A DNA stretch of 36,816 nt from a virus (taxonomy: Duplodnaviria > Heunggongvirae > Uroviricota > Caudoviricetes). Position numbers and translations under genes: made by a program. The stretch covers positions 1 to 36,816 of the IMG/VR virus record IMGVR_UViG_2563366829_000018. One strand, 5' to 3'. Below the pieces are notes generated by a model. It did no database searches. It saw only the letters and a program-made list of their open reading frames with translations, and had not been told where the DNA came from. Position 1 is the first letter of the stretch. Each line of letters opens with the position of its first letter. This document shows positions 18,199 to 36,438 of this stretch, one piece after another.

Positions 18199-18203
18199 GC
18201 ATG

Positions 18204-18235
18204 TAAAAAGGCCCCAACACATGTGCGTGGGGCCT
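18204..18235 (-). terminator. Intrinsic terminator upstream of the lysis cassette (7-bp GGCCCCA stem, then TTTTT on the minus strand)
   Basis: Read directly. Confidence 0.45.
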
Positions 18236-18434
18236 GAGAGTATACATGGTTTCAGTCAACTGCATGGTGCCGTGTGCCTCCCGGTGAATTCAGTACCAGC
18301 ACCTGAATCCGCGATTATCCCATATACCTACTCGCTGATTGCCCCTCCGCACAGGGGGATTCACCATGCCAGTTTCTTTTGACAAACTCCCCGCAAAACA
18401 GACAACTGTCAACCGTCTGAATTGTGAGACATTT

Positions 18435-18473: not shown

Positions 18474-18550
18474 TGGCGCGTTGTACTGGATTCGAACCAG
18501 TGACCGATTGCTTAGAAGGCAATTGCTCTGTCCGGTTGAGCTAACAACGC
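18474..18550 (-). tRNA. tRNA-Arg, anticodon UCU
   Basis: 77-nt cloverleaf folded by hand: GCGTTGT acceptor, anticodon loop CTTCTAA, TTCGAAT T-loop, encoded CCA. Confidence 0.85.
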
Positions 18551-18563
18551 AGGGTACAGATAA

Positions 18564-18640
18564 TGGACCACCATCGAGGACTCGAACCCCGCGCAACCAG
18601 CTTCGAAGGCTGGTGCTCTATCCTGATGAGCTAATGGCGG
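18564..18640 (-). tRNA. tRNA-Arg, anticodon UCG
   Basis: 77-nt cloverleaf folded by hand: anticodon loop CTTCGAA, TTCGAGT T-loop, encoded CCA. Confidence 0.8.
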
Positions 18641-18647
18641 TATGTGA

Positions 18648-18723
18648 TGGTGGCCCTTGCTGGATTTGAACCAGCGACCTGGCGATTATGAGTCGCTCGC
18701 TCTCACCACTGAGCTAAAGGGCC
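18648..18723 (-). tRNA. tRNA with CAU anticodon, ileX-like (Ile2 via lysidine, or Met)
   Basis: GGCCCTTTAGCTCAGTGGTGAGAGCGAGCGACTCATAATCGCC...CCA closely resembles E. coli ileX. Confidence 0.85.
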
Positions 18724-19943: not shown

Positions 19944-20075
19944 TTTAAGTTGTGTGGCGAAGTAACCACTCTTAACACACTAATAGCATTTTTGTTATAA
20001 CACAAGTAGCTCATTCAGTATTTTTAGAATCTTGACTTTCTTAAGCACGGCGAACTCTGAATACCAAACATAAAA

Positions 20076-20693
20076 TCAATTATCTTCCAGGCCGGATGCT
20101 ATCAACGAAAGCCTCTCAAAAAACGCTGTAGCAGCCTTGTCCAAAGTTGAATAAGTACTGTATTCTCCGTGTTCGGGACCAACCACTACCCATGGTCGTC
20201 TTTTTGGGATTCGGGACTTCTCAGAAATCACTGTTCCAGATATACCAATATCAATTGTTACACCTGTTATTATTTTCTCTTCATCTCTTTCCCTGAACTC
20301 AATTGCCATAAATGCCGTTTTTTTTCGTTTCCCGTTTTTAAAAAAATCAAATAAAGCAAAGCGATGCTCATTAAAATCAACACCCCATCGTCCTTCAGGA
20401 TAAAGGGCATGAAAGTTGTCATTTACGCTCTGCATCGTCTCATAAGCTTTAACTTCTAAATCTCCATAGTGCATAGATACCGCGCAGGAGTCACTGGGTA
20501 ACTGTATTTTCCCAAGATTGAAAACCTTTACTGCTCCAGAACTATGGCATCTTGCCCGCAATTTATCCCCATTTATACTAATCGGAGAAATATTCCTTAA
20601 TGTTCCGGGCTGGCTCCCTCCTAAGTAAACGACTGTTAAAGATTGCTTATTTTCAATTGCATCAACTAATACATGCTCTACATTTTTATCCAT
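20076..20693 (-). CDS. Hypothetical protein (205 aa), AT-rich cargo gene immediately downstream of Q
   Basis: Strong RBS GGGAGG 6 nt upstream of ATG (MDKNVEHV); no domain recognisable by eye. Confidence 0.6.
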   Translation of the reverse strand: MDKNVEHVLVDAIENKQSLTVVYLGGSQPGTLRNISPISINGDKLRARCHSSGAVKVFNLGKIQLPSDSCAVSMHYGDLEVKAYETMQSVNDNFHALYPEGRWGVDFNEHRFALFDFFKNGKRKKTAFMAIEFRERDEEKIITGVTIDIGISGTVISEKSRIPKRRPWVVVGPEHGEYSTYSTLDKAATAFFERLSLIASGLEDN

Positions 20694-20768
20694 AATAACC
20701 TCCCAATGAACAGGTATCATCAGGAGGTTATAATAAAATATGATTATTTACTTTGATTGAATTTATTA

Positions 20769-21140
20769 CTATATGTAACAATCAATTTCTAAAGATACCC
20801 CCAACATTGCCAGACAACCGTCAATAAACCCTTCAGCTTTCTGCAGTCTGATAACAACCTGATTAAGTGATATCCCCAGTTTTACCCCCAACACCCGTAA
20901 TGTAACCCCATACACATAATACATTTCCAGTAATTCGTATTGATACGGTTCCTTTTTCTTAAGAACTGTCATCGCAGAGCTAATGATCAGGCCATCGTCA
21001 TCGCTACATTGCGGGCGGGATTTTACTTTCGAAGGAATTAATCCCTTAAAACCTGCAGCAACAGATGACCATTCCACATCCTCGTGATTATTTGCCACCC
21101 ATGCCCCCCAACGTTCAAGAACCATTTGAATATCACGCAT
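20769..21140 (-). CDS. Q: Late-gene antiterminator Q (QuuD/phage-82 type)
   Basis: MRDIQMVLERWGAWVANNHEDVEWSSVAAGFKGL matches the QuuD-family N-terminus as I recall it; GGAG RBS; position upstream of the lysis module. Confidence 0.75.
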   Translation of the reverse strand: MRDIQMVLERWGAWVANNHEDVEWSSVAAGFKGLIPSKVKSRPQCSDDDGLIISSAMTVLKKKEPYQYELLEMYYVYGVTLRVLGVKLGISLNQVVIRLQKAEGFIDGCLAMLGVSLEIDCYI

Positions 21141-21157
21141 CAACTTTCTCCACAAAA

Positions 21158-24501: not shown

Positions 24502-24995
24502 TAAGCCCCCACGAAATTCCCTGACAGATACCACTCTTCACCCGATGCAGCGCGCTTGCTGCTTTTCCGTAAGCACCGCTCACGACGTGCCAGAAAATTG
24601 TTTCGTTCTGGCTGGGAGTGGCTTTCACGGAATGCCGCCATCCACACCGTTGCAGCACGACGGTATAAGCCCCTGGACTCCAGTTCTTCAGCCTGGCGGG
24701 TCAGGCACAAAATCACACGGGGATCGTTAGTGCCGACATAGAAATTGCGCACAGGTCTGGTTTCACGAACTGGTTGTGGTTCCGGATCCTGCGCTCTCTC
24801 AGTCAGGCGTGGGAAATGTCTGCGTGTATCTCCTTCACAACGGTGAGCCACACGCCCACTCTGACGTAACTTGCTTGCTGACTGCAGAACGCGCTGCCGT
24901 GAGTAACCAGCAAAAGCATCCGCAATGTCTCCGGAAGTACAGCCCGGATGGGCTTCAATGAATTTCTGAACTTCATTCAAAAGACTCATGATCAC
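24501..24995 (-). CDS. Hypothetical protein with a PerC-like C-terminal region
   Basis: LESRGLYRRAATVWMAAF resembles the PerC/Pch signature (GLWRRAA..W); ATGA coupling with the upstream gene. Confidence 0.45.
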   Translation of the reverse strand: MIMSLLNEVQKFIEAHPGCTSGDIADAFAGYSRQRVLQSASKLRQSGRVAHRCEGDTRRHFPRLTERAQDPEPQPVRETRPVRNFYVGTNDPRVILCLTRQAEELESRGLYRRAATVWMAAFRESHSQPERNNFLARRERCLRKSSKRAASGEEWYLSGNFVGA

Positions 24996-25810
24996 CCCCT
25001 GAATCCTTCCGGGATCTGGCTGTAGTCCACGTTGTCGTAACTGGCTTTGAAGTACGGGTCCTCGCGTCTGACTGCAGATACCGCAGGAACTTCCCAGGAT
25101 TCTTCGAAATGACGATCCGGGCCAAAGAACGTGACAGCCTGTTTCACAAATTGTGTGCCGCTGTTACCCATCGCAGATACCCAGCCCGCGTAGCGTTTCA
25201 CACCTTCCAGCATGGTTTCGGGGTTTACCCCCTCATTCAAACGGGCTTTCCAGGCTTTGAAGGCTGCAGATTTTGAATTGCCACCAGCACGTTTTGGATA
25301 GGCCAGCCATGCCTGCTCAAACTCCGGAGAGTATTCCGGTCGGTTTGAACGAACTCGCACAGACTCATCAGCAGATGCACCAACAGCTATTGGTTCATTG
25401 ACTGGTTCTTTGACTGGTTCAAAAGAGTGACTGGTTCTGGGTGAATCTCCTGCACTACCCCCTGGTGCAACTCCTGCACTACCTGGTGAATTTGCTGCAC
25501 CAGATAGTGAATTATTTGCACTACCCCCTAGTGAATCTCCTGCACCATCAAGATGAAGGAGATAGATATTACTTGAGTTACCTTTTTCACCTTTCCGGGT
25601 GACTTTTTTTACCAGCCCGGACTCACAAAGGGCCGCAATATGATTCATCACAGAACGTTTGCTAATCTCGCACTGGTCAGCAATATGCTGGTAGCTGGGC
25701 CAGCACTCACCCTGATCGCTGGCATTATCAGCCAGCTTAATCAGAACCAGTTTTCGCAATGGATTTCCCACTCGAATTTTCATCGCTTTAACCATCAACT
25801 CCATACTCAT
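24992..25810 (-). CDS. Replication initiator (O-like, N-terminal winged HTH) with a repetitive linker encoded by iterons
   Basis: N-terminal HTH (SYQHIADQCEISKRSVMNHIAALCESGLV); Gly/Ser/Ala-rich repeat region coinciding with DNA direct repeats. Confidence 0.6.
   Translation of the reverse strand: MSMELMVKAMKIRVGNPLRKLVLIKLADNASDQGECWPSYQHIADQCEISKRSVMNHIAALCESGLVKKVTRKGEKGNSSNIYLLHLDGAGDSLGGSANNSLSGAANSPGSAGVAPGGSAGDSPRTSHSFEPVKEPVNEPIAVGASADESVRVRSNRPEYSPEFEQAWLAYPKRAGGNSKSAAFKAWKARLNEGVNPETMLEGVKRYAGWVSAMGNSGTQFVKQAVTFFGPDRHFEESWEVPAVSAVRREDPYFKASYDNVDYSQIPEGFRG
25390..25550. repeat. Candidate replication origin iterons inside the O-like gene
   Basis: Three copies of TGACTGGTTC (25399-25438), two exact copies of GTGAATCTCCTGCAC (25441 and 25531), repeated TGCACTACC units. 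Confidence 0.55.
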
Positions 25811-26031
25811 GCAGCACCTCCGAGATGCTTCATGTTTTTTCCGGAGCGAAAGGCTATAAGCGGCATACTGACGCGGTAATTACGGCCCAGCGGTTCACAA
25901 ATCACCTTCTGACATTCACGGTCAACCAGGCTAACACGTAGAACATGCCCTGCAGGCGTGGTGTACCACTGACCCGGACGAGGACAACGGAAAGTATGAT
26001 TGGTAAACCGTTTGAAAATATTCCGGATCAT
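25807..26031 (-). CDS. Hypothetical small protein (74 aa)
   Basis: ORF translationally coupled to the O-like gene; no recognisable domain. Confidence 0.3.
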   Translation of the reverse strand: MIRNIFKRFTNHTFRCPRPGQWYTTPAGHVLRVSLVDRECQKVICEPLGRNYRVSMPLIAFRSGKNMKHLGGAA

Positions 26032-27188
26032 TTACGCCCCCTTACCTCTGAAGGGTTCAGCGACAAATTTATGAGACTGGCCAGTAGCGCCGCGTCGTTG
26101 ATGCGGTCATACAGACTTACAGCCAGCGGGGATTCGGCTTTTGCCAACATGGGATAAAGCTGCTGCAGCCAGACCTTGTGGATTACCGACAGGTGGGAGT
26201 AAAGCACGCTGGCGTTATCTGCGGCATCGCTCAGCGTGGATGGCTTTGAAAGCAGTTTTTCCATCTGGTTAAAGGCATTGATGTATGCCTCTTTGAACCG
26301 GGCAGCACGTTTACCCGTGAAACCCATAGCAAGAAACGCAAAACCGTCTCGTGTGATTTGATAGCAAAGGAGCTTGCGTGTACCACCGTTCGGTTGATTT
26401 ACCGAAATCGATGTCTCCGCAAAATTGCGGGCACAAAACTCAGGGGAACAATCCAGAGTGCGGATCTTTTTCAGCACATCGTCGTGACGCTTGGAGAAGA
26501 AGTTGGCAACAGCCAAAGAAGTGGTAACGGCCTGGCCGTTGTCAATGGTGATTTCAGGTTGAGTGAGGGCTGGGATCGTAGCCATGATGGCAGCCTCCGT
26601 TGACAGTGAAAAACTTCCACCACCGGAAACGCCAATTTCACTGGTGGTGAACTGGACGGGGTTGGCGTAACCGGCGTCAACGGAGACCGGCGCACCTTTC
26701 GGTGCCCCCGCCCAGCCCACCATAATCTGGATGTGAGCAAATGCGGACGATAAAAAAGACGCTGGCGCGTCATACATCGCCGTTGACAATTTCAGGACGC
26801 CAATCCCGGCACCCGCTTTATAAGGTGCCTGAACAGTGTAACGTCCCGGAATTGCAGAATCAATATGCTGGTGGTCCTTCACACTCAACAAAATCACGCC
26901 TGAATTTCCACAAAGGACTAAAGCACTCATGCGGGTAGTCTTTGCGAAGATAGATAACGCGCTGTGTTTCTGGCTCCCAACGAATAACATGGACATAAAG
27001 CCCTCTTCCGTCACGAAACCAGCGGTTAAGTTCCTGCACAACTCGCCCCCCACAGTCAGGTAAAGTTCTCTGTGGTTACTTACAGCCAGGTGATTTGGTA
27101 ATCTGCATTCATGCCGTAACAACAGGTGTTCAGCGACGCTGACCACCAGCTGTTGCGACAAACGGTTATTTGCCGTTAAACTATTCAT
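26028..27188 (-). CDS. Rha-family phage regulatory protein with a ~200-aa N-terminal extension
   Basis: Rha-like core (ITIDNGQAVTTSLAVANFFSKRHDDVLKKIRTL) at residues ~210-300; ATGA coupling with the CII-like gene supports the long form; an alternative start at 26585 has a GGAGG RBS. Confidence 0.55.
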   Translation of the reverse strand: MNSLTANNRLSQQLVVSVAEHLLLRHECRLPNHLAVSNHRELYLTVGGELCRNLTAGFVTEEGFMSMLFVGSQKHSALSIFAKTTRMSALVLCGNSGVILLSVKDHQHIDSAIPGRYTVQAPYKAGAGIGVLKLSTAMYDAPASFLSSAFAHIQIMVGWAGAPKGAPVSVDAGYANPVQFTTSEIGVSGGGSFSLSTEAAIMATIPALTQPEITIDNGQAVTTSLAVANFFSKRHDDVLKKIRTLDCSPEFCARNFAETSISVNQPNGGTRKLLCYQITRDGFAFLAMGFTGKRAARFKEAYINAFNQMEKLLSKPSTLSDAADNASVLYSHLSVIHKVWLQQLYPMLAKAESPLAVSLYDRINDAALLASLINLSLNPSEVRGRK

Positions 27189-27742
27189 GCGTTAGTTTCT
27201 CCACAACCAGAAGCAATCGACGCCACGACGCCCGGAGCTGCACACTCGCGGGCGTTACTCTTTTCTGGAGCGCAGAAGATTTTGTAGACCAGTGCTGCAT
27301 GCTCCTGGAGCTTCGAAATTGAAAGATACAGTTCGTCGTTAATTGCTGTCTTCTCATGCGGTTCCACTACACCGTCTTCGATTGCTGAACGAATCTGTCT
27401 GGAATAACTGCCGATCTGTTCAATGACTTCCAGCAGGCGCTGGTTTATATCGGCGTTCTCTACTGCCTCAATTTCAGGAAGCGATACGAACACCCCACCA
27501 GCAGACTGTGCGACAGCATCCGCAATGTAGTGAGTGCCAGCCGCACGCTGTAAAACCATTGCCCATCCCAGCGGGAAAATCTGATCGCCATCTGCACGAA
27601 GGCGGTTGAATAATGCGTTCTCTGTTACATCCAGCCACTCAGCAGCTTCAGCGTAACCCCCCGGCAACGCCGCGATAGTTTTTCTGACAGCTTTCACGTA
27701 CCACTCAGGCTGTTTTTCCACTTTCCAGTGATGATTACCCAC
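27185..27742 (-). CDS. Putative CII-like regulatory protein
   Basis: Position immediately downstream of cro; assignment is by position and weak resemblance only. Confidence 0.4.
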   Translation of the reverse strand: MGNHHWKVEKQPEWYVKAVRKTIAALPGGYAEAAEWLDVTENALFNRLRADGDQIFPLGWAMVLQRAAGTHYIADAVAQSAGGVFVSLPEIEAVENADINQRLLEVIEQIGSYSRQIRSAIEDGVVEPHEKTAINDELYLSISKLQEHAALVYKIFCAPEKSNARECAAPGVVASIASGCGETNA

Positions 27743-27995
27743 GGCTTACCTCCTGTTCCTGTGGTTTAAACCCATTCTGGTTTTGGCTAGATTGAAAACG
27801 TGCCGGATAAAGAATCTGCATTTCGCTGATTTCACCCTTAAAAAAATTGGCCAGACGTTCTGCAAGATCGATAGATGGAATTTGTTCCAGTCTTTCAATA
27901 CGACTCAGCGTCGCTGGATTGACCTGAACGCCCGCAGCAACATGCTGCAAAGTAAATCCGTGCGCCTTACGCACATTCCGTAATGGTGATTGCAT
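27735..27995 (-). CDS. cro: Cro-like repressor (XRE-family HTH)
   Basis: HTH (HGFTLQHVAAGVQVNPATLSRIE); divergent from cI; GGAGG RBS. Confidence 0.8.
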   Translation of the reverse strand: MQSPLRNVRKAHGFTLQHVAAGVQVNPATLSRIERLEQIPSIDLAERLANFFKGEISEMQILYPARFQSSQNQNGFKPQEQEVSRG

Positions 27996-28092
27996 ATAAC
28001 CTCCACATATTGCGTGATGAGCATATTATTTCACGCAAATATTTTGCGCAAGTTGATTTGCTTAACGCGCAATAAAGAAATGTAATAAACGC
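27996..28092. promoter_or_regulatory. Right operator / divergent promoter region between cro and cI
   Basis: Repeated palindromic half-sites (TTGCGTGA...TCACGCAA, CGCAAATATTTTGCG, TTGCGCAA) in the 97-bp cI-cro intergenic region. Confidence 0.6.
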
Positions 28093-28785
28093 ATGAACAT
28101 AGGAAACCGAGTCAGACAACTTCGCCAGGCGAAGAACATGAAAATCGCCGATCTCGCTGAAGCAATAGGAGTGGATGCGGCGAATATCTCACGCCTGGAA
28201 ACAGGTAAGCAGAAACAATTCACTGAACAAGCCCTGAGTAATATTGCCAGGAGCTTAGGTGTTGATATCGCTGATCTCTTTACCTCAGACGTCAAAAGTA
28301 ATACTGTATGTAAAAACAGTATTGGTGAGGATGTTGCGCAGGTGAAGGATGTATTCCGTATTGAAATGCTGGATGTCAGTGCCAGTGCGGGAAATGGCCT
28401 TATCCAGGGCGGTGATGTCATTGATGTGATTCATGCCATTGAATACAGAACTGATAATGCTGTATCGATGTTTGGCGGACGGCCAGCCAATCACATTAAA
28501 GTTATCAACGTTCGTGGGGACAGTATGTGTCCAACCATTGAGCCAGGAGATCTCATCTTCGTTGATATCAGTATCAATCAGTTTGATGGGGATGGTATAT
28601 ATGTATTTGGTTTTGATGATAAAATTTACGTCAAACGACTGCAAATGATACCTGATAAACTGCTGGTAATTTCTGATAATCAGATTTACCGCGAATGGGG
28701 AATTACCAGCGAAAACGAACATCGGTTTATGGTCTTTGGAAAGGTCTTAATCAGTCAGTCACAAACCCTTAAGCGACACAATTAA
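28093..28785 (+). CDS. cI: CI-type prophage repressor (XRE HTH plus S24 LexA-like autopeptidase domain)
   Basis: N-terminal HTH; C-terminal S24-like domain (VRGDSMCPTIEPGDLIFVD ... KIYVKRL); no Shine-Dalgarno sequence upstream of the ATG. Confidence 0.9.
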   Translation: MNIGNRVRQLRQAKNMKIADLAEAIGVDAANISRLETGKQKQFTEQALSNIARSLGVDIADLFTSDVKSNTVCKNSIGEDVAQVKDVFRIEMLDVSASAGNGLIQGGDVIDVIHAIEYRTDNAVSMFGGRPANHIKVINVRGDSMCPTIEPGDLIFVDISINQFDGDGIYVFGFDDKIYVKRLQMIPDKLLVISDNQIYREWGITSENEHRFMVFGKVLISQSQTLKRHN

Positions 28786-28805
28786 CCCCTACCTCAACAT
28801 CAATT

Positions 28806-28830
28806 AGCCACCAGAAGGTGGCTTTTCATT
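28806..28830 (+). terminator. Intrinsic terminator downstream of cI (AGCCACC-AGAA-GGTGGCT followed by TTTTCATT)
   Basis: Read directly. Confidence 0.5.
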
Positions 28831-28839
28831 ACCCACCAA

Positions 28840-28900
28840 ATTGCATATCTCGCAATAAAAACACTTGCATAATGCGCAACTTCATTTTATCTTTCTTTCC
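28840..28900 (+). promoter_or_regulatory. Candidate left operator / pL region
   Basis: Operator-like repeats TTGCATATCTCGCAA and TTGCATAATGCGCAA resembling the half-sites of the right operator. Confidence 0.35.
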
Positions 28901-29487
28901 AGACATACAAACAAGGTACTAACAAAATTTGGTTGTAACACGGCGTATGGCACATGCGTCGTTAGCGGTCTGGTGACGTTAAAGGGGACAATCCACTCCT
29001 TGCTCGGGCAAACAAACCAGGTAGCCGGAATGTGCAAGTCAATGATGATGCTGATAAGACGCCTAACCAGCGTGGCGATCCGGTTTGACGCCTGGGAAGA
29101 GACCAGGGTGCAACGATGAGGGCATTTATGGAACCGCGACAAAGTGTGGTGCCGTAACTGGCTAAGTGCTCTCAGCGTTGTGGTAATCCGCGAAATGGCG
29201 CGGCGGTAAGTATGGCGGGGTTACTCTTTCCCCGTTGAGGACACCGGATTGTCAGGTTGACCATACGCCTGAGTGACAACCCCACCACAACAGCCACTGC
29301 TTTGGCGGTACCAGTTTGTACCCTTGCTTCCGGCTGGTACCGCTCTTTTTACAAAACAGAGAAGAGCATCACCGGACGACGGGCTCATAACCCAATCCAT
29401 CCGGGCGGCTGTCACCGCAGGTGTTCTTCTCTGTTTTGTGGAGAAACCAACCGACCTTGCAGGGTCGGTATGATGAGGAGCAGCAAA

Positions 29488-29850
29488 ATGGCTAGCGTAC
29501 GCAGTACTGATGTGCAGGTATTTATCGTAGAACTGGACGGCGGCGTATTTGAAACCAAACTCGGCGCAGTTCTCAGTGAAGTCGCTTCCGGTGTGATGAA
29601 CACGAAAAACAAAGGTAAAGTCTCGGTCAATCTGGACATCGAACCGTTTGATGAGAACCGTGTGAAAATCAAACACAAACTCTCATATGTTCGCCCGACT
29701 AACCGCGGGAAAATCTCCGAAGAAGACACCACCGAAACGCCGATGTATGTCAATCGAGGTGGTCGCCTGACTATTCTGCAGGAAGACCAGGGACAATTAC
29801 TGACTCTTGCCGGTGAACCTGACGGAAAACTCCGCGCAGCAGGTCGTTAA
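29488..29850 (+). CDS. YfdP-like hypothetical protein (120 aa)
   Basis: GAGGAG RBS; size and position match the yfdP-yfdQ-yfdR-yfdS module of prophage CPS-53. Confidence 0.55.
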   Translation: MASVRSTDVQVFIVELDGGVFETKLGAVLSEVASGVMNTKNKGKVSVNLDIEPFDENRVKIKHKLSYVRPTNRGKISEEDTTETPMYVNRGGRLTILQEDQGQLLTLAGEPDGKLRAAGR

Positions 29851-29915
29851 TATCGTTCGTAATAAACTGATTATTTATCTCATCACTGAATATCTTTATA
29901 TAGTGAGGACTTATT

Positions 29916-30740
29916 ATGTCTCAGAACTTAGACGCAACCGCAATTAATCAAATCCATGCCCTTATTTCTGCTCAGGGTGTTAATGAAATTATCAGTAAGA
30001 TTGGTGCCGATGCTGTGGCATTGCCTGAGAATTTCCGCATTCATGATCTGGAAAAATTTAATTTAAATCGCTTCCGTTTCCGTGGTGCACTTTCCACTGC
30101 CAGCATCGATGATTTTACCCGTTATTCTAAAGATCTTGCAGATGAAGGCACCCGCTGCTTTATCGATGCCGATAATATGCGTGCCGTCAGTGTGCTTAAC
30201 CTGGGTACTATTGATGAGCCAGGTCACGCAGATAACACTGCCACTCTCAAACTGAAAAAGACAGCACCGTTCTCTGCTCTGTTGTCTGTTAACGGCGAGC
30301 GTAACTCCCAGAAGTCACTGGCAGAATGGATCGAAGACTGGGCCGACTACCTTGTGGGCTTTGATGCTAATGGTGACGCTATTCAGGCAACAAAAGCGGC
30401 TGCGGCAGTCCGTAAAATCACGATTGAAGCAAACCAGACCGCTGATTTTGAAGATAATTACTTCAGCGGCAAACGCTCCCTGATGGAGTCTGTCGAAGCG
30501 AAGACCAAAGACATTATGCCAGTGGCATTTGAATTTAAATGCGTTCCGTTTGAAGGTCTGAAAGAACGTCCGTTTAAATTACGCCTCAGCATTATCACTG
30601 GCGATCGTCCTGTACTGGTTCTGCGCATTATTCAGCTGGAAGCGGTGCAGGAAGAAATGGCTAACGAATTTCGTGATCTGCTTGTTGAGAAATTCAAAGA
30701 CAGCAAAGTAGAAACCTTTATTGGTACTTTCACCGCCTGA
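29916..30740 (+). CDS. YfdQ-like DUF2303 protein (274 aa)
   Basis: Length and gene order match yfdQ. Confidence 0.65.
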
Positions 30741-30867
30741 TTTCATTACTGCAAATGCCCCTGCGGGGGCATTTATGGAAACGTAATTAACTCAATAATC
30801 ACCGGATGGTGAGGGCTTCCTTTTACCAGAATTCAGCGCGGTGCAGTGCATATACGTGGAGAACAAA

Positions 30868-31404
30868 ATGTCATTTATTAAAACTTTTTCCGGGAAGCAT
30901 TTTTATTATGACAAGATAAATAAAGACGACATCGATATTAACGATATCGCGGTTTCCCTTTCAAATATCTGTCGCTTTGCCGGTCATCTTTCGCACTTCT
31001 ACAGCGTCGCCCAACATGCGGTTCTTTGCAGCCAGCTGGTGCCGCAGGAATTTGCTTTTGAAGCGTTAATGCATGATGCAACAGAAGCGTATTGCCAGGA
31101 CATTCCCGCACCACTGAAACGCCTTCTTCCTGACTATAAACGGATGGAAGAAAAAATAGACGCCGTAATCCGTGAGAAATACGGGTTACCCCCAGTTATG
31201 AGTACACCCGTGAAATATGCCGATCTCATCATGCTGGCAACCGAACGCCGCGATCTCGGGCTTGATGATGGCTCTTTCTGGCCTGTACTGGAAGGCATCC
31301 CGGCAACAGAGATGTTCAACGTGATTCCACTGGCACCGGGTCATGCCTACGGGATGTTTATGGAACGTTTTAACGATTTATCGGAGTTACGCAAATGCGC
31401 ATGA
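30868..31404 (+). CDS. HD-domain phosphohydrolase (YfdR-like 5'-deoxynucleotidase, 178 aa)
   Basis: HD motif context (SVAQHAVLCSQL ... ALMHDATEAYCQDIPAPLK). Confidence 0.7.
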   Translation: MSFIKTFSGKHFYYDKINKDDIDINDIAVSLSNICRFAGHLSHFYSVAQHAVLCSQLVPQEFAFEALMHDATEAYCQDIPAPLKRLLPDYKRMEEKIDAVIREKYGLPPVMSTPVKYADLIMLATERRDLGLDDGSFWPVLEGIPATEMFNVIPLAPGHAYGMFMERFNDLSELRKCA

Positions 31405-31757
31405 ATGTTTTCGAAATGGAAGGGTTTCTTCGCGGGAAATGTGTACCGCGAGATCTGAAAGTGAATGAAACAAATGCTGAGTACCTGTTACGTAAATTCG
31501 ACGCGCTTGAAGCTAAATGTGCGGCACTGGAAAACAAAATAATACCAGTGTCAGCTGAACTGCCACCAGCAAATGAAAGTGTTCTGTTATTTGATGCTAA
31601 CGGAGAAGGCTGGCTAATTGGCTGGCGTTCTCTCTGGTACACCTGGGGACAAAAAGAAACCGGAGAATGGCTGTGGACATTTCAGGTCGGGGACCTTGAA
31701 AACGTCAATATCACTCACTGGGCAGTAATGCCGAAAGCACCGAAGAATAAAAAATGA
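31395..31757 (+). CDS. DUF551-like protein (YfdS-like, 120 aa)
   Basis: ELPPANESVLLFDANGEGWLIGW motif; size and order match yfdS. Confidence 0.6.
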   Translation: MRMNVFEMEGFLRGKCVPRDLKVNETNAEYLLRKFDALEAKCAALENKIIPVSAELPPANESVLLFDANGEGWLIGWRSLWYTWGQKETGEWLWTFQVGDLENVNITHWAVMPKAPKNKK

Positions 31758-31957
31758 GCGTGATAAAAACTCATACAGGAATTGTTATCACCCGAGACGG
31801 TCCGCAGGTAAAAAAACTGCACCAGACAAAGCGGATGTGGGTCGTCGGAAAAAACGAGTTTTACCACAAAGAAACCGGACGCCGCCACTTTGCAGAAAAT
31901 ACTCGCCGCCGACTGCTGATCGATACCATCAAGCCTATCGAGGTGAAGCATGTTTAA
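31754..31957 (+). CDS. Hypothetical small protein (67 aa)
   Basis: ORF with overlapping stop/start in the operon. Confidence 0.35.
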   Translation: MSVIKTHTGIVITRDGPQVKKLHQTKRMWVVGKNEFYHKETGRRHFAENTRRRLLIDTIKPIEVKHV

Positions 31958-32189
31958 ACAGAACGAAAAATCTATCGCTCAAATTGCTGAGTATATCCCG
32001 CGTGCGTGCCGGGATATGCAGTTGCAGGAAGCCAAAGCACGCCTGGAGAAAAAAATTGCGCTCTATATCGATGACGGCTGTGATGCCGCCGTTCTTAACG
32101 CGGCGTTCGCGCCAGCTCTTAACAGTCATACGCGAAAGTCTTTTTTTTCGTGCATCGCAGCGCAGATCCGTAAAGGAGGCAACCAGTGA
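31950..32189 (+). CDS. Hypothetical small protein (79 aa)
   Basis: ORF with overlapping stop/start in the operon. Confidence 0.35.
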   Translation: MFKQNEKSIAQIAEYIPRACRDMQLQEAKARLEKKIALYIDDGCDAAVLNAAFAPALNSHTRKSFFSCIAAQIRKGGNQ

Positions 32190-32785
32190 GCAACATTAAC
32201 TATCAGGTACTGCGTGAAAAGGCAGAGAAAGCAACTAAAGGAAGCTACATCGTAGGGCATACATCTGTTAACCAACACGGCAATTTAACAGGAGTTTTTG
32301 TTTGTCAAAAATGGAAAGGAGAACCCGGTGGCGTAATTGCAGAATGTCACGTTAACTGCCTGGTTGAAACAGATGCTCAGGCTTATGCAAACGCTGAATT
32401 CATAGCAGAGGCTAACCCGGCTACCGTGCTGGCACTGCTGGATGAACAGGAAAGAAACCAGCAATACATCAAACGCCGCGACCAGGAGAACGAGGATATT
32501 GCGCTAACGGTAGGGAAGCTGCGCGTTGAGCTTGAGGAGACAAAATCAAAACTCAACGAGCAGCGCGAGTATTATGAGGGAGTTATCTCTGATGGGTGCA
32601 AGCGTATTGCTGAACTGGAAGCGCGGGAAGTTCAATTACCGACTCGCTACGACCTTCGATATGGACACCCCATAAATGCAGATGAGCGACAAGTCATGAT
32701 ACCTAAAGAAAATGGCAGTTGGCTTTACCTGATTGACCTAGAACACGCATTACGCGTCGCTGACATTCGCATCAAAGGAGAGTGA
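32186..32785 (+). CDS. Ead/Ea22-like protein
   Basis: N-terminus MSNINYQVLREKAEKATKG and central coiled-coil typical of Ea22-like early-left proteins. Confidence 0.6.
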   Translation: MSNINYQVLREKAEKATKGSYIVGHTSVNQHGNLTGVFVCQKWKGEPGGVIAECHVNCLVETDAQAYANAEFIAEANPATVLALLDEQERNQQYIKRRDQENEDIALTVGKLRVELEETKSKLNEQREYYEGVISDGCKRIAELEAREVQLPTRYDLRYGHPINADERQVMIPKENGSWLYLIDLEHALRVADIRIKGE

Positions 32786-32786
32786 T

Positions 32787-33302
32787 ATGGCGTTAACACA
32801 CCACGAACTCTGTCAGATTGCGTACAAGTTCCTTAAGCGCAACGGGTTCAAGGTTTGCTTTCATGACCGCTTTGTTGCTGTAACCAGTACCGGAGAACAG
32901 CCAGATGCTATGGGATTCAGAAATTCAGCATCATGCCTGATAGAGGCGAAGTGTTCTCGTGCTGACTTGTTGGCAGATAGAAAAAAGCGTTTCCGTAAAA
33001 ATCCCTCACTTGGCATGGGCGACTGGCGATTCTTTATTAGTGAGCCGGAAATTATTTCAGTTGAGGATTTACCTCCCGGCTGGGGATTACTTCACGTTGT
33101 TAACGGAAGAGTACGGAAAGTACATGGATGGCCCAGGGGTAATTGCTGTTGGGGTAATCCTGACGATAAGCCATTTACCGGGAATAAGCAGGTTGAATGC
33201 GATTACATGTTATCTGCATTAAGGCGCATGGAGTTGAGAGGGCACCTTAATGAAATATATGACGGTGTAATTGTTAATAAGAAAGAAGGAAACGCGGCAT
33301 GA
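32787..33302 (+). CDS. Putative PD-(D/E)xK-type nuclease (171 aa)
   Basis: Candidate catalytic triad in EQPDAMGF ... CLIEAKCS. Confidence 0.45.
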   Translation: MALTHHELCQIAYKFLKRNGFKVCFHDRFVAVTSTGEQPDAMGFRNSASCLIEAKCSRADLLADRKKRFRKNPSLGMGDWRFFISEPEIISVEDLPPGWGLLHVVNGRVRKVHGWPRGNCCWGNPDDKPFTGNKQVECDYMLSALRRMELRGHLNEIYDGVIVNKKEGNAA

Positions 33303-33817
33303 TCACTATTACCAAAGAGCGACTGCTGACAATCAAGCAGTGGCGCGAAACATACGGACCGGGTAGCAACGTTGTACTGCCAGCAGAAGAAGCGGAAGAA
33401 CTGGCACGAATTGCTCTGGCATCGCTGGAAGCAGAGCCGATAGGTTTCCGTTGCAGGCGCAATGATAACCTTGGTGATTGGAGTTACGTATATCATCGAG
33501 AGCCAGATGATTTTGAGCGCAAACATTTAGTGATAGAGGGCATTTACGCCGCCCCTCCAGCGCCGGTAGTGCCGGAAGAAATGTATTGGCAGGATGCGCC
33601 AGTTGAAGGCAGCAGCAAAGCGGCTGCATACGCTACAGGCTGGAACGATTGCCGCGAAGCCATGCTTCAGTCCGGAAACTTTCGGGAAAATAAAGATTCG
33701 TCAACCAATAATTTTCGGAAAATCCCGGAAGCGTCAACCAGCTCTCCGGTAACTCCGGATGGTTGGATAAGCTGTAGTGAGCGAATGCCGGACGACAGGC
33801 AGGAGGTGAATCAATGA
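33299..33817 (+). CDS. Hypothetical protein (172 aa) with a DUF551-like C-terminal motif
   Basis: C-terminal DGWISCSERMPDD resembles the DUF551 core. Confidence 0.45.
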   Translation: MITITKERLLTIKQWRETYGPGSNVVLPAEEAEELARIALASLEAEPIGFRCRRNDNLGDWSYVYHREPDDFERKHLVIEGIYAAPPAPVVPEEMYWQDAPVEGSSKAAAYATGWNDCREAMLQSGNFRENKDSSTNNFRKIPEASTSSPVTPDGWISCSERMPDDRQEVNQ

Positions 33818-34594: not shown

Positions 34595-35908
34595 ATGGAT
34601 AAAGTCAAATATCCAACAGGCGTCGAAAACCACGGCGGCACATTACGCATCTGGTTTAATTTTAAAGGTAAACGTGTCAGGGAAAATCTTGGTGTCCCTG
34701 ACACTGCCAAGAACAGGAAGATCGCCGGGGAACTGCGGACATCAGTATGTTTTGCCATCCGCACAGGAAGCTTTGATTATGCTGCACAGTTCCCTGACTC
34801 CCCCAACCTTCAGGCTTTTGGGGTAAGTAAAAAAGAAATTACGGTGAAGGAACTTGAAGAAAAGTGGCTGGATCTGAAACGAATGGAAATCTCTGCAAAT
34901 GCATTCAATCGCTATGAATCCGTTGCAAGAACGATGGTTCCGAAAATTGGAGGCAGTAGACTGGTGTCATCGGTAACCAAAGAGGAATTGCTGTATATCA
35001 GGAAAGATTTGCTGACCGGGTATCAGAATTCAACGAAAAACAAAGCAGCAGCAAAAGGACGGAGCGTCGTTACTGTAAATTATTACATGACGACAATCGC
35101 TGGAATGTTTCAGTTTGCTGCAGATCACGGTTACTTAGAAGCAAATCCCTTCCAGGGAATTAAGCCTCTTAAAAGAGCCAGGGCAGAGCCAGATCCGCTA
35201 ACTCGTGACGAATTTATTCGCCTGATAGATGCTTGCCGACATCAGCAGACGAAAAACCTGTGGTCATTGGCTGTGTACACAGGAATGCGTCACGGTGAAC
35301 TGGTCTCCCTGGCCTGGGAAGATATCGATCTGAAGGCAGGAACAATTACCATCAGGCGCAATTATACGAAACTTGGTGAGTTCACTCTACCGAAAACTGA
35401 AGCAAGCACAAACAGGGTTGTGCACCTTATCCAGCCCGCTATCAGTGTCCTGAAAAATCAGGCTGAAATGACAAGACTGGGTAAGCAGTACAACATCAAG
35501 GTGCAACTACGTGAATATGGACGTTCAGTGAACCATGAATGTACTTTCGTGTTTAACCCTCAAGTGGTTAGAAAAAGCGAACAGGTAGGTTTTGTCTACA
35601 AAGTCGATTCTGTAGGTGACTCATGGGAAACAGCCATTAAGCGTGCAGGGATCAGGCATCGAAAGGCATACCAGTCACGACACACTTATGCGTGCTGGTC
35701 ATTATCTGCCGGAGCAAACCCAAGCTTCATTGCCAGCCAGATGGGCCATGCAAGTGCCCAGATGGTATTCAATGTATACGGAGCATGGATGACTGACAGC
35801 AATGCAGAACAGATCGCAATGCTGAATCAGAAGCTGACAGATTATGTCCCAATGATGCCCCATAGTCACCAAAGTGACACCAGAGGCTTATTAAAATCAG
35901 TAAGTTAA
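34595..35908 (+). CDS. int: Tyrosine-type site-specific integrase
   Basis: C-terminal catalytic motifs (R...HxxR...Y: MRHGELVSL, YQSRHTYACW, VFNVYG); GGAGG RBS; at the prophage end. Confidence 0.9.
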   Translation: MDKVKYPTGVENHGGTLRIWFNFKGKRVRENLGVPDTAKNRKIAGELRTSVCFAIRTGSFDYAAQFPDSPNLQAFGVSKKEITVKELEEKWLDLKRMEISANAFNRYESVARTMVPKIGGSRLVSSVTKEELLYIRKDLLTGYQNSTKNKAAAKGRSVVTVNYYMTTIAGMFQFAADHGYLEANPFQGIKPLKRARAEPDPLTRDEFIRLIDACRHQQTKNLWSLAVYTGMRHGELVSLAWEDIDLKAGTITIRRNYTKLGEFTLPKTEASTNRVVHLIQPAISVLKNQAEMTRLGKQYNIKVQLREYGRSVNHECTFVFNPQVVRKSEQVGFVYKVDSVGDSWETAIKRAGIRHRKAYQSRHTYACWSLSAGANPSFIASQMGHASAQMVFNVYGAWMTDSNAEQIAMLNQKLTDYVPMMPHSHQSDTRGLLKSVS

Positions 35909-35934
35909 TCCTTAATACCCGTCATGTTAACTGC

Positions 35935-36438
35935 GTGGAGGGCAACACCACGCTTTACGCCCTGCCGAAACCCGAGGTTGTCCTGCGCTGGCGTGAGCAG
36001 ACCACAGATGACTTCCGCTTCTGTTTTAAGTTTCCGGCGACCATTTCGCATCAGGCAGCATTACGGCATTGCGATGATTTAGTGACTGAATTTTTGACCC
36101 GCATGTCACCGTTGGCTCCGCGCATTGGGCAATACTGGCTGCAACTGCCTGCCACATTCGGCCCACGGGAGCTGCCTGCGCTTTGGCATTTTCTCGATTC
36201 TCTTCCTGGCGAATTTAATTATGGCGTGGAAGTCCGCCATCCACAGTTTTTCGCCAAAGGAGAAGAGGAACAAACGCTTAATCGCGGTTTACATCAGCGC
36301 GGCGTTAATCGGGTGATTTTAGACAGCCGCCCGGTTCATGCAGCACGTCCACACAGTGAAGCTATTCGCGACGCTCAACGAAAAAAACCTAAAGTTCCGG
36401 TACATGCTGTACTGACGGCGACAAATCCGCTGATCTGA
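35935..36438 (+). pseudogene. Truncated host gene fragment (possibly yecE, DUF72 family), cut at the 5' end by the prophage junction and at the 3' end by the IS element
   Basis: Reading frame is open upstream into int; stop codon is supplied by the first bases (TGA) of the IS inverted repeat. Confidence 0.45.

Follow-up and report, generated by a model that had tools for sequence, protein, structure and literature searches.

The yfdPQRS Module and Its Distribution

We analyzed four co-directional genes in a 36,816-nt stretch of viral DNA (Caudoviricetes; IMG/VR record IMGVR_UViG_2563366829_000018, positions 1 to 36,816; hereafter the window), which an initial annotation, made from the sequence alone, had described as an early-left operon of four overlapping accessory genes resembling yfdP-yfdQ-yfdR-yfdS of prophage CPS-53. 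The genes occupy positions 29488-31757 on the + strand. The first, yfdP (29488-29850; 120 aa), begins with ATG and is preceded by GAGGAG 6 nt upstream; yfdQ (29916-30740; 274 aa) codes for a DUF2303 protein; yfdR (30868-31404; 178 aa from ATG) codes for an HD phosphohydrolase and can be read as an alternative open reading frame (ORF) from GTG at 30841; and the product of yfdS (31395-31757; 120 aa) has an N-terminal region followed by a DUF551-like C-terminus.

Using megablast, we found several Escherichia coli chromosomes that were 100% identical to the window across all 2270 nt of this region. A K-12-like chromosome with CPS-53, in which the layout is intS...yfdP-yfdQ-yfdR-yfdS-yfdT-torI-dsdC, showed 100% identity over nt 1-2255 of the 2270-nt stretch, and the same accession numbers for YfdP, YfdQ and YfdR (WP_001555122, WP_000081287 and WP_000008165) were found in this chromosome and in the full-length 100% matches. 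The resemblance to CPS-53 was therefore confirmed; homology searches, which might have failed to link these genes to the yfd proteins, gave an exact link. Based on the sequence, it is near certain that the four genes are the yfdPQRS module in its native setting. These genes are already known and named, and their identification as such is an ordinary finding. The module is common: of 5426 complete E. coli genomes, 3025 matched the 2270-nt stretch, with at least 80% of it covered in 2446 cases, and 49 phage records, including SfV, SfIV, mEp460, Stx2c phages and PhiR49, carried the block at 96.5-99% identity. A trio of yfdR-like, yfdQ and yfdP genes has also been reported to be frequent in the early-left operons of lambdoid phages; not all Rec-less phages have it, other phages can have it too, and yfdQ and yfdP lack a known function (PMC12315714).

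Other parts of the initial description required correction. All four ORFs were found at the predicted limits, but the spacings between them (yfdP-yfdQ, +65 nt; yfdQ-yfdR, +127 nt; yfdR-yfdS, -10 nt) showed that only yfdR and yfdS overlap. In addition, the gap between yfdQ and yfdR contains a hairpin (AAAUGCCCC-UGCG-GGGGCAUUU; 30753-30774, +), a possible terminator or attenuator whose fold was stronger than expected (z = -3.1; 1 of 200 shuffled sequences was as stable) and at whose position a terminator is annotated in phage Ayreon; due to its weak T tract, it was not called in our terminator consensus scan. Because of this hairpin, the listing of yfdPQ as a separate unit in K-12 work (PMC9181523) and the presence of at least five more genes beyond yfdS, the four genes probably do not make up a single closed operon.

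The HD-Domain Protein YfdR and YfdS

YfdR matched phrog_318 (“deoxyribonucleoside 5' monophosphate phosphatase”; E-value 5e-110), and residues 18-175 could be aligned to PDB entry 2gz4 (Atu1052; E-value 3.7e-14). In 52 homologues (49-99% identity), residues H50, H69, D70, E73, D78 and D119 were at least 97% conserved, supporting the assignment of this protein as an HD-domain protein. Scores against HD-family models were below the cut-offs, with 24.3 bits for the Pfam YfbR-like model (cut-off 25.9), 17 bits for HD_3 (cut-off 22.5) and 19.9 bits for the NCBIfam YfbR equivalog NF003009 (cut-off 122). As YfdR misses the Pfam YfbR-like threshold and, by a wide margin, the equivalog cut-off, its profile scores place it in an HD subfamily other than YfbR and argue that it is not a YfbR orthologue. 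The expectation that the remaining proteins were of DUF type was also supported: YfdQ matched Pfam DUF2303 (PF10065) with an E-value of 1.2e-91 (307 bits, cut-off 26.6; residues 7-272 on positions 2-269 of the 269-position profile), and YfdS, which matched phrog_583 (E-value 6e-81), scored just below the threshold for DUF551 (PF04448; 20.9 bits, cut-off 22; residues 50-117).

The HD protein had initially been proposed as a candidate for manipulation of nucleotide pools. In this scenario, YfdR would mainly be a 5'-deoxynucleotidase that reshapes the pool of deoxynucleoside mono- and triphosphates (dNMP and dNTP) early in infection, and its neighbors would be unrelated accessory genes. The intact and conserved catalytic residues, the phrog_318 assignment and the RefSeq name of yfdR (5'-deoxynucleotidase) are consistent with such a role, and so is the broad range of the family, which has members in 333 phage records spanning many hosts, lytic and jumbo phages included. 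The profile scores given above point in the other direction, and the affinity of YfdR for nucleotides was reported to be much lower than that of YfbR (Zimmerman 2008, as cited in PMC4776307).

Published experiments on the K-12 proteins, of which YfdR is identical to that of the window, point instead to an effect on initiation of host replication. Noguchi & Katayama isolated yfdQRST as a multicopy suppressor of the over-initiation mutant hda-185 and found that the minimal suppressing set was yfdQ and yfdR together with either yfdS or yfdT, with yfdP dispensable (PMC4776307). When present in multicopy, this set inhibited oriC initiation in living cells, both of the wild type and of several other backgrounds, and oriC replication was inhibited in vitro in extracts oversupplied with Yfd proteins (PMC4776307). 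Purified YfdR bound domain I of DnaA in a Phe46-dependent manner and competed moderately with DiaA and DnaB (PMC4776307). That the replication phenotype requires yfdQ and yfdS or yfdT besides yfdR is a further argument against a role confined to nucleotides. Considering the low reported affinity for nucleotides and the block of initiation through DnaA, nucleotide-pool manipulation is not the best-supported function, and we regard it as unlikely.

The sole recognizable replication gene in the window coded for an O/DnaD-like helix-turn-helix (HTH) protein (24992-25810, -) with matches to HTH_36 and, weakly, DnaD_N, and neither a helicase loader nor a helicase was recognized in the window. The absence of a helicase loader is of interest since YfdR binds the DnaB-recruiting face of DnaA.

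YfdP and YfdQ Are Encoded as an Obligate Pair

YfdP matched phrog_204 (E-value 2.5e-48) and had 288 homologues, of which all those listed carry PF27127 in precomputed Pfam annotation; the closest one, 93% identical, is named “protein YfdP”. Our own search gave no Pfam match for YfdP, using a copy of Pfam that has no model for the PF27127 family. To examine gene context, ORFs were searched in 80 YfdQ-encoding loci, one genome per species. We found YfdP directly upstream of YfdQ in 79 of these 80 loci, the exception being located at a contig end, and the pairing held in Marinobacter, Photobacterium, Kistimonas and Pontibacterium, where identity had dropped to 39-45%. By gene order, YfdP and YfdQ thus appear to be an obligate pair, a rule that may be new. 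YfdR was the next gene after the pair in 59 loci. For 11 of the 21 loci that lacked YfdR, the downstream gene was scanned: it encoded a DEDD 3'-5' exonuclease in 4 (Sodalis, an Enterobacterales metagenome-assembled genome, Photobacterium and Marinobacter) and a single-stranded DNA-binding protein (SSB) in 2 (Proteus and Kistimonas). These are not enzymes of nucleotide metabolism, which again argues against the nucleotide-pool scenario.

Two loci illustrate this context. In a Photobacterium prophage (L079:3686-8172), the gene order was cII, cI-like gene, yfdP, yfdQ, DEDD exonuclease and integrase. In the virulent Xanthomonas podophage CP2 (L084), yfdP and yfdQ were followed by genes for a DUF1351-like protein, Erf, an exonuclease, an endonuclease and SSB, and the whole string headed by the pair adjoins the replication initiator gene; the CP2 YfdP homologue was recognized with an hhalign probability of 99.2%. 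Because of the obligate pairing, the interchangeability with RdgC described below and the recurrent exonuclease, SSB and Erf neighbors, we take YfdP-YfdQ to be a putative DNA-transaction unit.

Structural information was available for a YfdQ homologue. PDB entry 9o7m (“YfdQ Protein”, 36 chains) gave a profile match to YfdQ with an E-value of 1e-58; its YfdQ chain shares 93-99% identity with a protein of virulent Xanthomonas podophages of the CP2 type and approximately 39% with YfdQ of the window. The 36 chains suggest a large oligomer. We found no paper mentioning the code 9o7m (a preprint describing the virion structure of a CP2 relative is unconnected with this entry) and no PDB entry for the YfdP homologue of CP2. 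AlphaFold models were of moderate confidence (pLDDT 75 for YfdQ and 69 for YfdP), with the conserved C-terminal third of YfdP (tail residues 76-110) predicted to be disordered, and fold searches with both models, in libraries without 9o7m, gave no convincing structural relatives. Neither YfdP nor YfdQ showed profile or fold similarity to known phage annealases. RdgC and RexA were absent from the fold matches; besides, the possibility that YfdQ is a remote RdgC homologue was rejected (hhalign probability 0.1%), and comparison of YfdP with HupA (HU-IHF) gave a probability of 0.7%.

It could also be argued that the pair, together with the adjacent nuclease or HD enzyme, constitutes an unrecognized recombination or annealing system that replaces a missing Rec module. 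No exo/bet/gam-type genes were recognized in the window, and Chi (GCTGGTGG) was found 13 times on the - strand (11692, 16974, 19565, 19881, 21644, 21915, 23219, 24471, 25281, 27143, 27495, 31563 and 34174) and 3 times on the + strand (21515, 24115 and 26867), with 0.44 expected per strand; these features fit the LLS class of phages described as having no Rec module and being rich in Chi (PMC12315714). The exonuclease and SSB genes beside the pair in other taxa, the large oligomer suggested by the YfdQ homologue and the weak sensitivity of a yfdQ deletion mutant to methyl methanesulfonate (cited in PMC4776307) are also in keeping with such a system. However, the cluster is also present in phages that have a complete, separate Rec module (PMC12315714), and in CP2 the pair coexists with the phage's own Erf, exonuclease and SSB genes. 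We therefore consider such a replacement system very improbable.

Early-Left Setting and a Conserved Leader RNA

The left direction is defined by a cI-like repressor gene (28093-28785, +), whose product matched HTH families and Pfam Peptidase_S24 (E-value 6e-19); a cro-like ORF (27735-27995, -) and a CII-like gene (27185-27742, -) are divergent from it. A terminator-like hairpin detected in the consensus scan directly follows the repressor gene (28806-28823, +; 7-bp stem with 5 G-C pairs, tail TTTCATTACC). Just after it are two operator-like 15-mers, TTGC-N7-GCAA, at 28841-28855 and 28865-28879 (+). Only four such sites are present in the whole window, and the third is located at 28058-28072 in the cro-cI intergenic region. 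These three sites are candidate repressor operators, with the pair at 28841 and 28865 as the likely oL/pL region and the one at 28058 as candidate oR. The downstream DNA is shared with Ayreon, where the places equivalent to the repressor hairpin and the operator-like sites are annotated as a terminator and a promoter.

As expected for a pL operon, all genes from yfdP onward lie on the strand of cI, downstream of the operator-like sites, and lead to the integrase. The yfdS gene is followed by a co-directional string (31754-33817, +) of ORFs for proteins of 67 aa, 79 aa, 199 aa (Ead/Ea22-like; Pfam Ead_Ea22, E-value 1e-40), 171 aa and 172 aa (with a DUF551 start); all five had PHROG matches, and the spacings from yfdS onward were -4, -8, -4, +1 and -4 nt. 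After 33817, the string ends with a DUF4222 gene and a tyrosine integrase gene (34595-35908, +). The early-left position given in the initial annotation was thus supported by strand, by the terminator-like hairpin and two operator-like sites upstream and by the direction toward the integrase, and “early-left operon” is a sound description in which promoter activity is deduced from these signals.

The repressor gene and yfdP are separated by 702 nt. From 28921 onward, this leader was 98.9% identical in phages with different immunity regions and repressors, and it folded more strongly than shuffled sequences (z = -5.2). It includes a terminator-like hairpin followed by UCUUUUU (29304-29351, +; -21.2 kcal/mol, z = -3.5, none of 200 shuffles as stable). 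The N-type antiterminator gene and nut site expected after pL were not recognized: 28880-29487 has no consistent ORF, and annotations of related phages conflict there; the region contains a structured RNA instead. This RNA (29344-29470, +), identified with RNAalifold and a covariance model, is found immediately before the ribosome-binding site of yfdP and has a three-way-junction-like fold composed of a closing helix of approximately 19 bp, a hairpin with a near-invariant GGGCUCAUAACCCAAUCC, a hairpin of variable length (inserts of 0-50 nt that are not multiples of three) and a 3' hairpin before the ribosome-binding site. In an alignment of 26 loci from many enterobacterial genera, RNAalifold predicted 37 pairs, 14 of which showed compensatory changes; 97.9% of the cells were paired, compared with 36-55% when partners were slid, and none of 500 shuffles reached the covariation score. 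The covariance model scored 121 bits on the + strand of the window vs. 37 bits on the - strand and, across loci, 110-147 bits on the yfdP strand vs. 27-42 bits on the opposite one. It also detected weaker copies in the same place in Yersinia, Serratia, Rahnella, Chania, Symbiopectobacterium and Proteus.

Three other identities of the leader were rejected. It is not a known RNA, as a search of 28700-29600 against Rfam 15 gave no match at gathering score and none even at E-value ≤1. It is not a put-like pair of sites, as a single copy occurs in the window and none in the rightward operon. It is not a coding sequence either, considering the non-triplet insert lengths, strand-specific G-U pairs and conflicting ORFs and strands in existing annotations. 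The RNA may be cis-regulatory.

The core 16-mer of the leader RNA was then used to examine which genes follow it in viral contigs, where 121 instances were found (counts not dereplicated). YfdP was encoded approximately 91 nt downstream in 79 instances. In 16 others an RdgC homologue was present, followed by YfdR wherever the contig was long enough, and in 8 YfdR followed directly. The RdgC homologues were matched by the Pfam RdgC family with E-values of 1.5e-115 and 1.4e-30, and the non-YfdP instances that were checked had full-length model matches of 80-133 bits. These counts indicate that YfdP-YfdQ and RdgC are alternative occupants of the slot between the leader RNA and yfdR. Both the RNA and this slot equivalence may be new, the RNA being the most novel by-product of the analysis.

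Part of this leader has been described as a small RNA (sRNA), sRNA-17 of E. coli K1 (PMC7719688). When placed via the alignment in the supplement of that paper, the printed sequence of sRNA-17 was found to begin with ~67 nt that are the reverse complement of 29283-29349, i.e., the hairpin and U tract, and CP014111, the closest relative of the window, is in that paper's list of shorter sRNA-17 homologues. In wild-type RS218, yfdP reads were near zero; after deletion of sRNA-17, yfdP read counts rose approximately 95-fold and those of yfdR also increased (PMC7719688). This effect fits a cis effect of losing the leader terminator, and the published sRNA-17 phenotypes could thus be cis effects on the yfd operon. 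The reported strand of sRNA-17 may deserve re-examination.

The exchange with RdgC also bears on whether the module, or a part of it that includes yfdP-yfdQ, benefits the lysogen, either by making it more tolerant of stress or by excluding superinfecting phages as lambda rexAB does. RdgC homologues replace the pair behind the same leader, and RdgC has been connected with RexA by structural similarity and by its position left of cI (PMC12315714). Deletions of CPS-53, yfdQ and yfdS were reported to raise sensitivity to H2O2 or acid (Wang 2010, as cited in PMC4776307), and the cluster has been kept in more than half of E. coli genomes, including those where it resides in the defective CPS-53. On the other hand, located downstream of the cI terminator, the operator-like sites and the further terminator-like hairpin, the genes are expected to be silent in a lysogen, consistent with the RS218 read counts. 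The pair is also encoded by the virulent CP2, which has no lysogeny. Besides, none of the nine proteins encoded in 29488-33817 matched a PADLOC defense model, and membership of the cluster in a known type of defense system was rejected on this basis. A benefit to the lysogen is in our opinion improbable.

A Possible Role in Host DNA Replication

Overall, we suggest that the yfd genes are an early-expressed module acting on host DNA replication and DNA transactions, with a probability of about 0.5. Direct functional evidence points only to one part of this, interference with DnaA-dependent initiation by YfdR together with YfdQ and YfdS or YfdT. The weak sensitivity to methyl methanesulfonate and H2O2 caused by deletion of yfdQ (cited in PMC4776307) is consistent with the proposed module. 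After induction or infection, pL-type transcription would deliver the Yfd proteins, which could damp or redirect host initiation in favor of the phage replicon, while the YfdP-YfdQ two-protein unit might act on DNA or on intermediates of recombination or replication. As the catalytic HD site is conserved, an enzymatic step of YfdR, on dNMP or another phosphoester, probably matters too. Expression would be gated by the leader with its terminator-like hairpin and conserved structured RNA.

Several observations weigh against this proposal. Initiation was unaffected when yfdQRST were deleted, and an artifact of overexpression was considered possible in that work itself (PMC4776307); also, their pull-downs did not show binding of YfdQ, YfdS or YfdT to YfdR or DnaA (PMC4776307). 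The functional data were all obtained with multicopy expression in K-12, with no phage phenotype reported. A YfdS-like gene accompanied the cluster in only 6 of the 80 species loci. Finally, adjacency and sharing of a slot are circumstantial, given that unrelated accessory genes are combined in mosaic fashion in early-left regions.

A more ambitious version, which we offer as speculative and rather doubtful, is that the structured RNA is a switch responsive to a ligand or protein, possibly bound by the products of its own cassette, and that it gates a cassette in which YfdP-YfdQ, interchangeable with RdgC, precedes an HD enzyme; together these would make a new phage early system acting on host DNA replication or recombination. 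In this version YfdP-YfdQ may form a large assembly, as could be expected from the deposited 36-chain structure of the YfdQ homologue.

These questions concern a widespread element. More than half of complete E. coli genomes contain the cluster, as do Shiga-toxin phages, cdt phages and serotype-converting phages of the SfV type, and YfdR is its only product with any biochemical description. If DnaA or DnaB is indeed redirected at induction, this would help explain the replication of lambdoid phages that have an O-like initiator and no helicase loader. The leader RNA and the slot equivalence of YfdP-YfdQ and RdgC provide testable handles on this common and neglected prophage region.

Prophage Context

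The prophage is a lambdoid element of the SfV/mEp460/LLS type, and yfdPQRS are the first genes of its repressor-controlled early-left string. It has no recognizable recombination module, and its replication genes are limited to the O-like one. Its rightward region contains genes for Rha/Ash, the O/DnaD-like HTH protein, PerC, a methylase, RusA, KilA-N and Q. Several other features were observed in the window. Rfam matches to C4 antisense RNA (26640-26727, -; 81 bits) and the Hfq-binding RNA isrK (26752-26828, -; 62 bits) were located inside or beside the Rha/Ash antirepressor-like gene (26028-27188), suggesting a P1/P7-type antisense immunity layer besides cI. Three tRNA genes (18477-18550, 18567-18640 and 18651-18723, all -) were clustered with a match to the sRNA STnc100 (18199-18398, -; 129 bits) downstream of the Q gene (20769-21155). 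The lowest G+C content of the window (0.38 at 20001-21000) coincided with a 214-aa ORF (20076-20720, -) that had no Pfam match; located between Q and the tRNA cluster, this ORF may be a moron or cargo gene.

Comparison with Known Systems

The closest known system is yfdPQRST of K-12 CPS-53 (KplE1), which has the same gene order and spacing as the window. Differences are found at both ends. The match to K-12 stops 15 nt short of the yfdS end, such that the C-terminus of YfdS differs and its accession is a different one, and in place of yfdT the window has the 67-aa (phrog_1226) and 79-aa (phrog_1344) ORFs. In K-12, only 18 nt ahead of the yfdP start codon have escaped a deletion, and a truncated O gene comes directly before them; CPS-53 has thereby lost the repressor gene with its operators as well as the terminator and the structured RNA of the leader. 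In SfV (orf29-32), SfIV, mEp460 (gp32-35), Stx2c phages, ST64B and LLS (gp37-39), the genes have the same position left of the repressor as in the window. The immunity regions of related lambdoid phages differ from that of the window, whereas the leader from 28921 travels with the module. Attachment sites differ as well: the prophage of the window adjoins a DUF72 gene (integrase and DUF72, 34595-36438, +), whereas the chromosomes with 100% matches to the yfd block have their prophage beside mlrA/yohO, indicating that the same early-left module rides prophages at different sites.

At the protein level, YfdR shares the H...HD...D metal-binding motif with E. coli YfbR and Atu1052 and differs from YfbR in its sub-threshold model scores and, as reported at second hand, in its much weaker binding of nucleotides. 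The comparison with RdgC and with lambda RexA-like proteins encoded left of cI is one of position: RdgC homologues hold the exact place of YfdP-YfdQ from the leader RNA to yfdR, but one protein replaces two and has no detectable sequence relation to YfdQ. With regard to the proposed effect on host initiation, YfdR resembles lambda P, which inhibits DnaA, and binders of DnaA domain I that restrain initiation, such as Bacillus subtilis SirA and, in E. coli, Dps in competition with DiaA; its target is DnaA Phe46, the site of DiaA and DnaB binding. SirA and lambda P are unrelated in sequence to YfdR, which is an HD phosphohydrolase and needs YfdQ and YfdS or YfdT in vivo; the analogy, drawn previously (PMC4776307), is with phage-encoded interference in host initiation.

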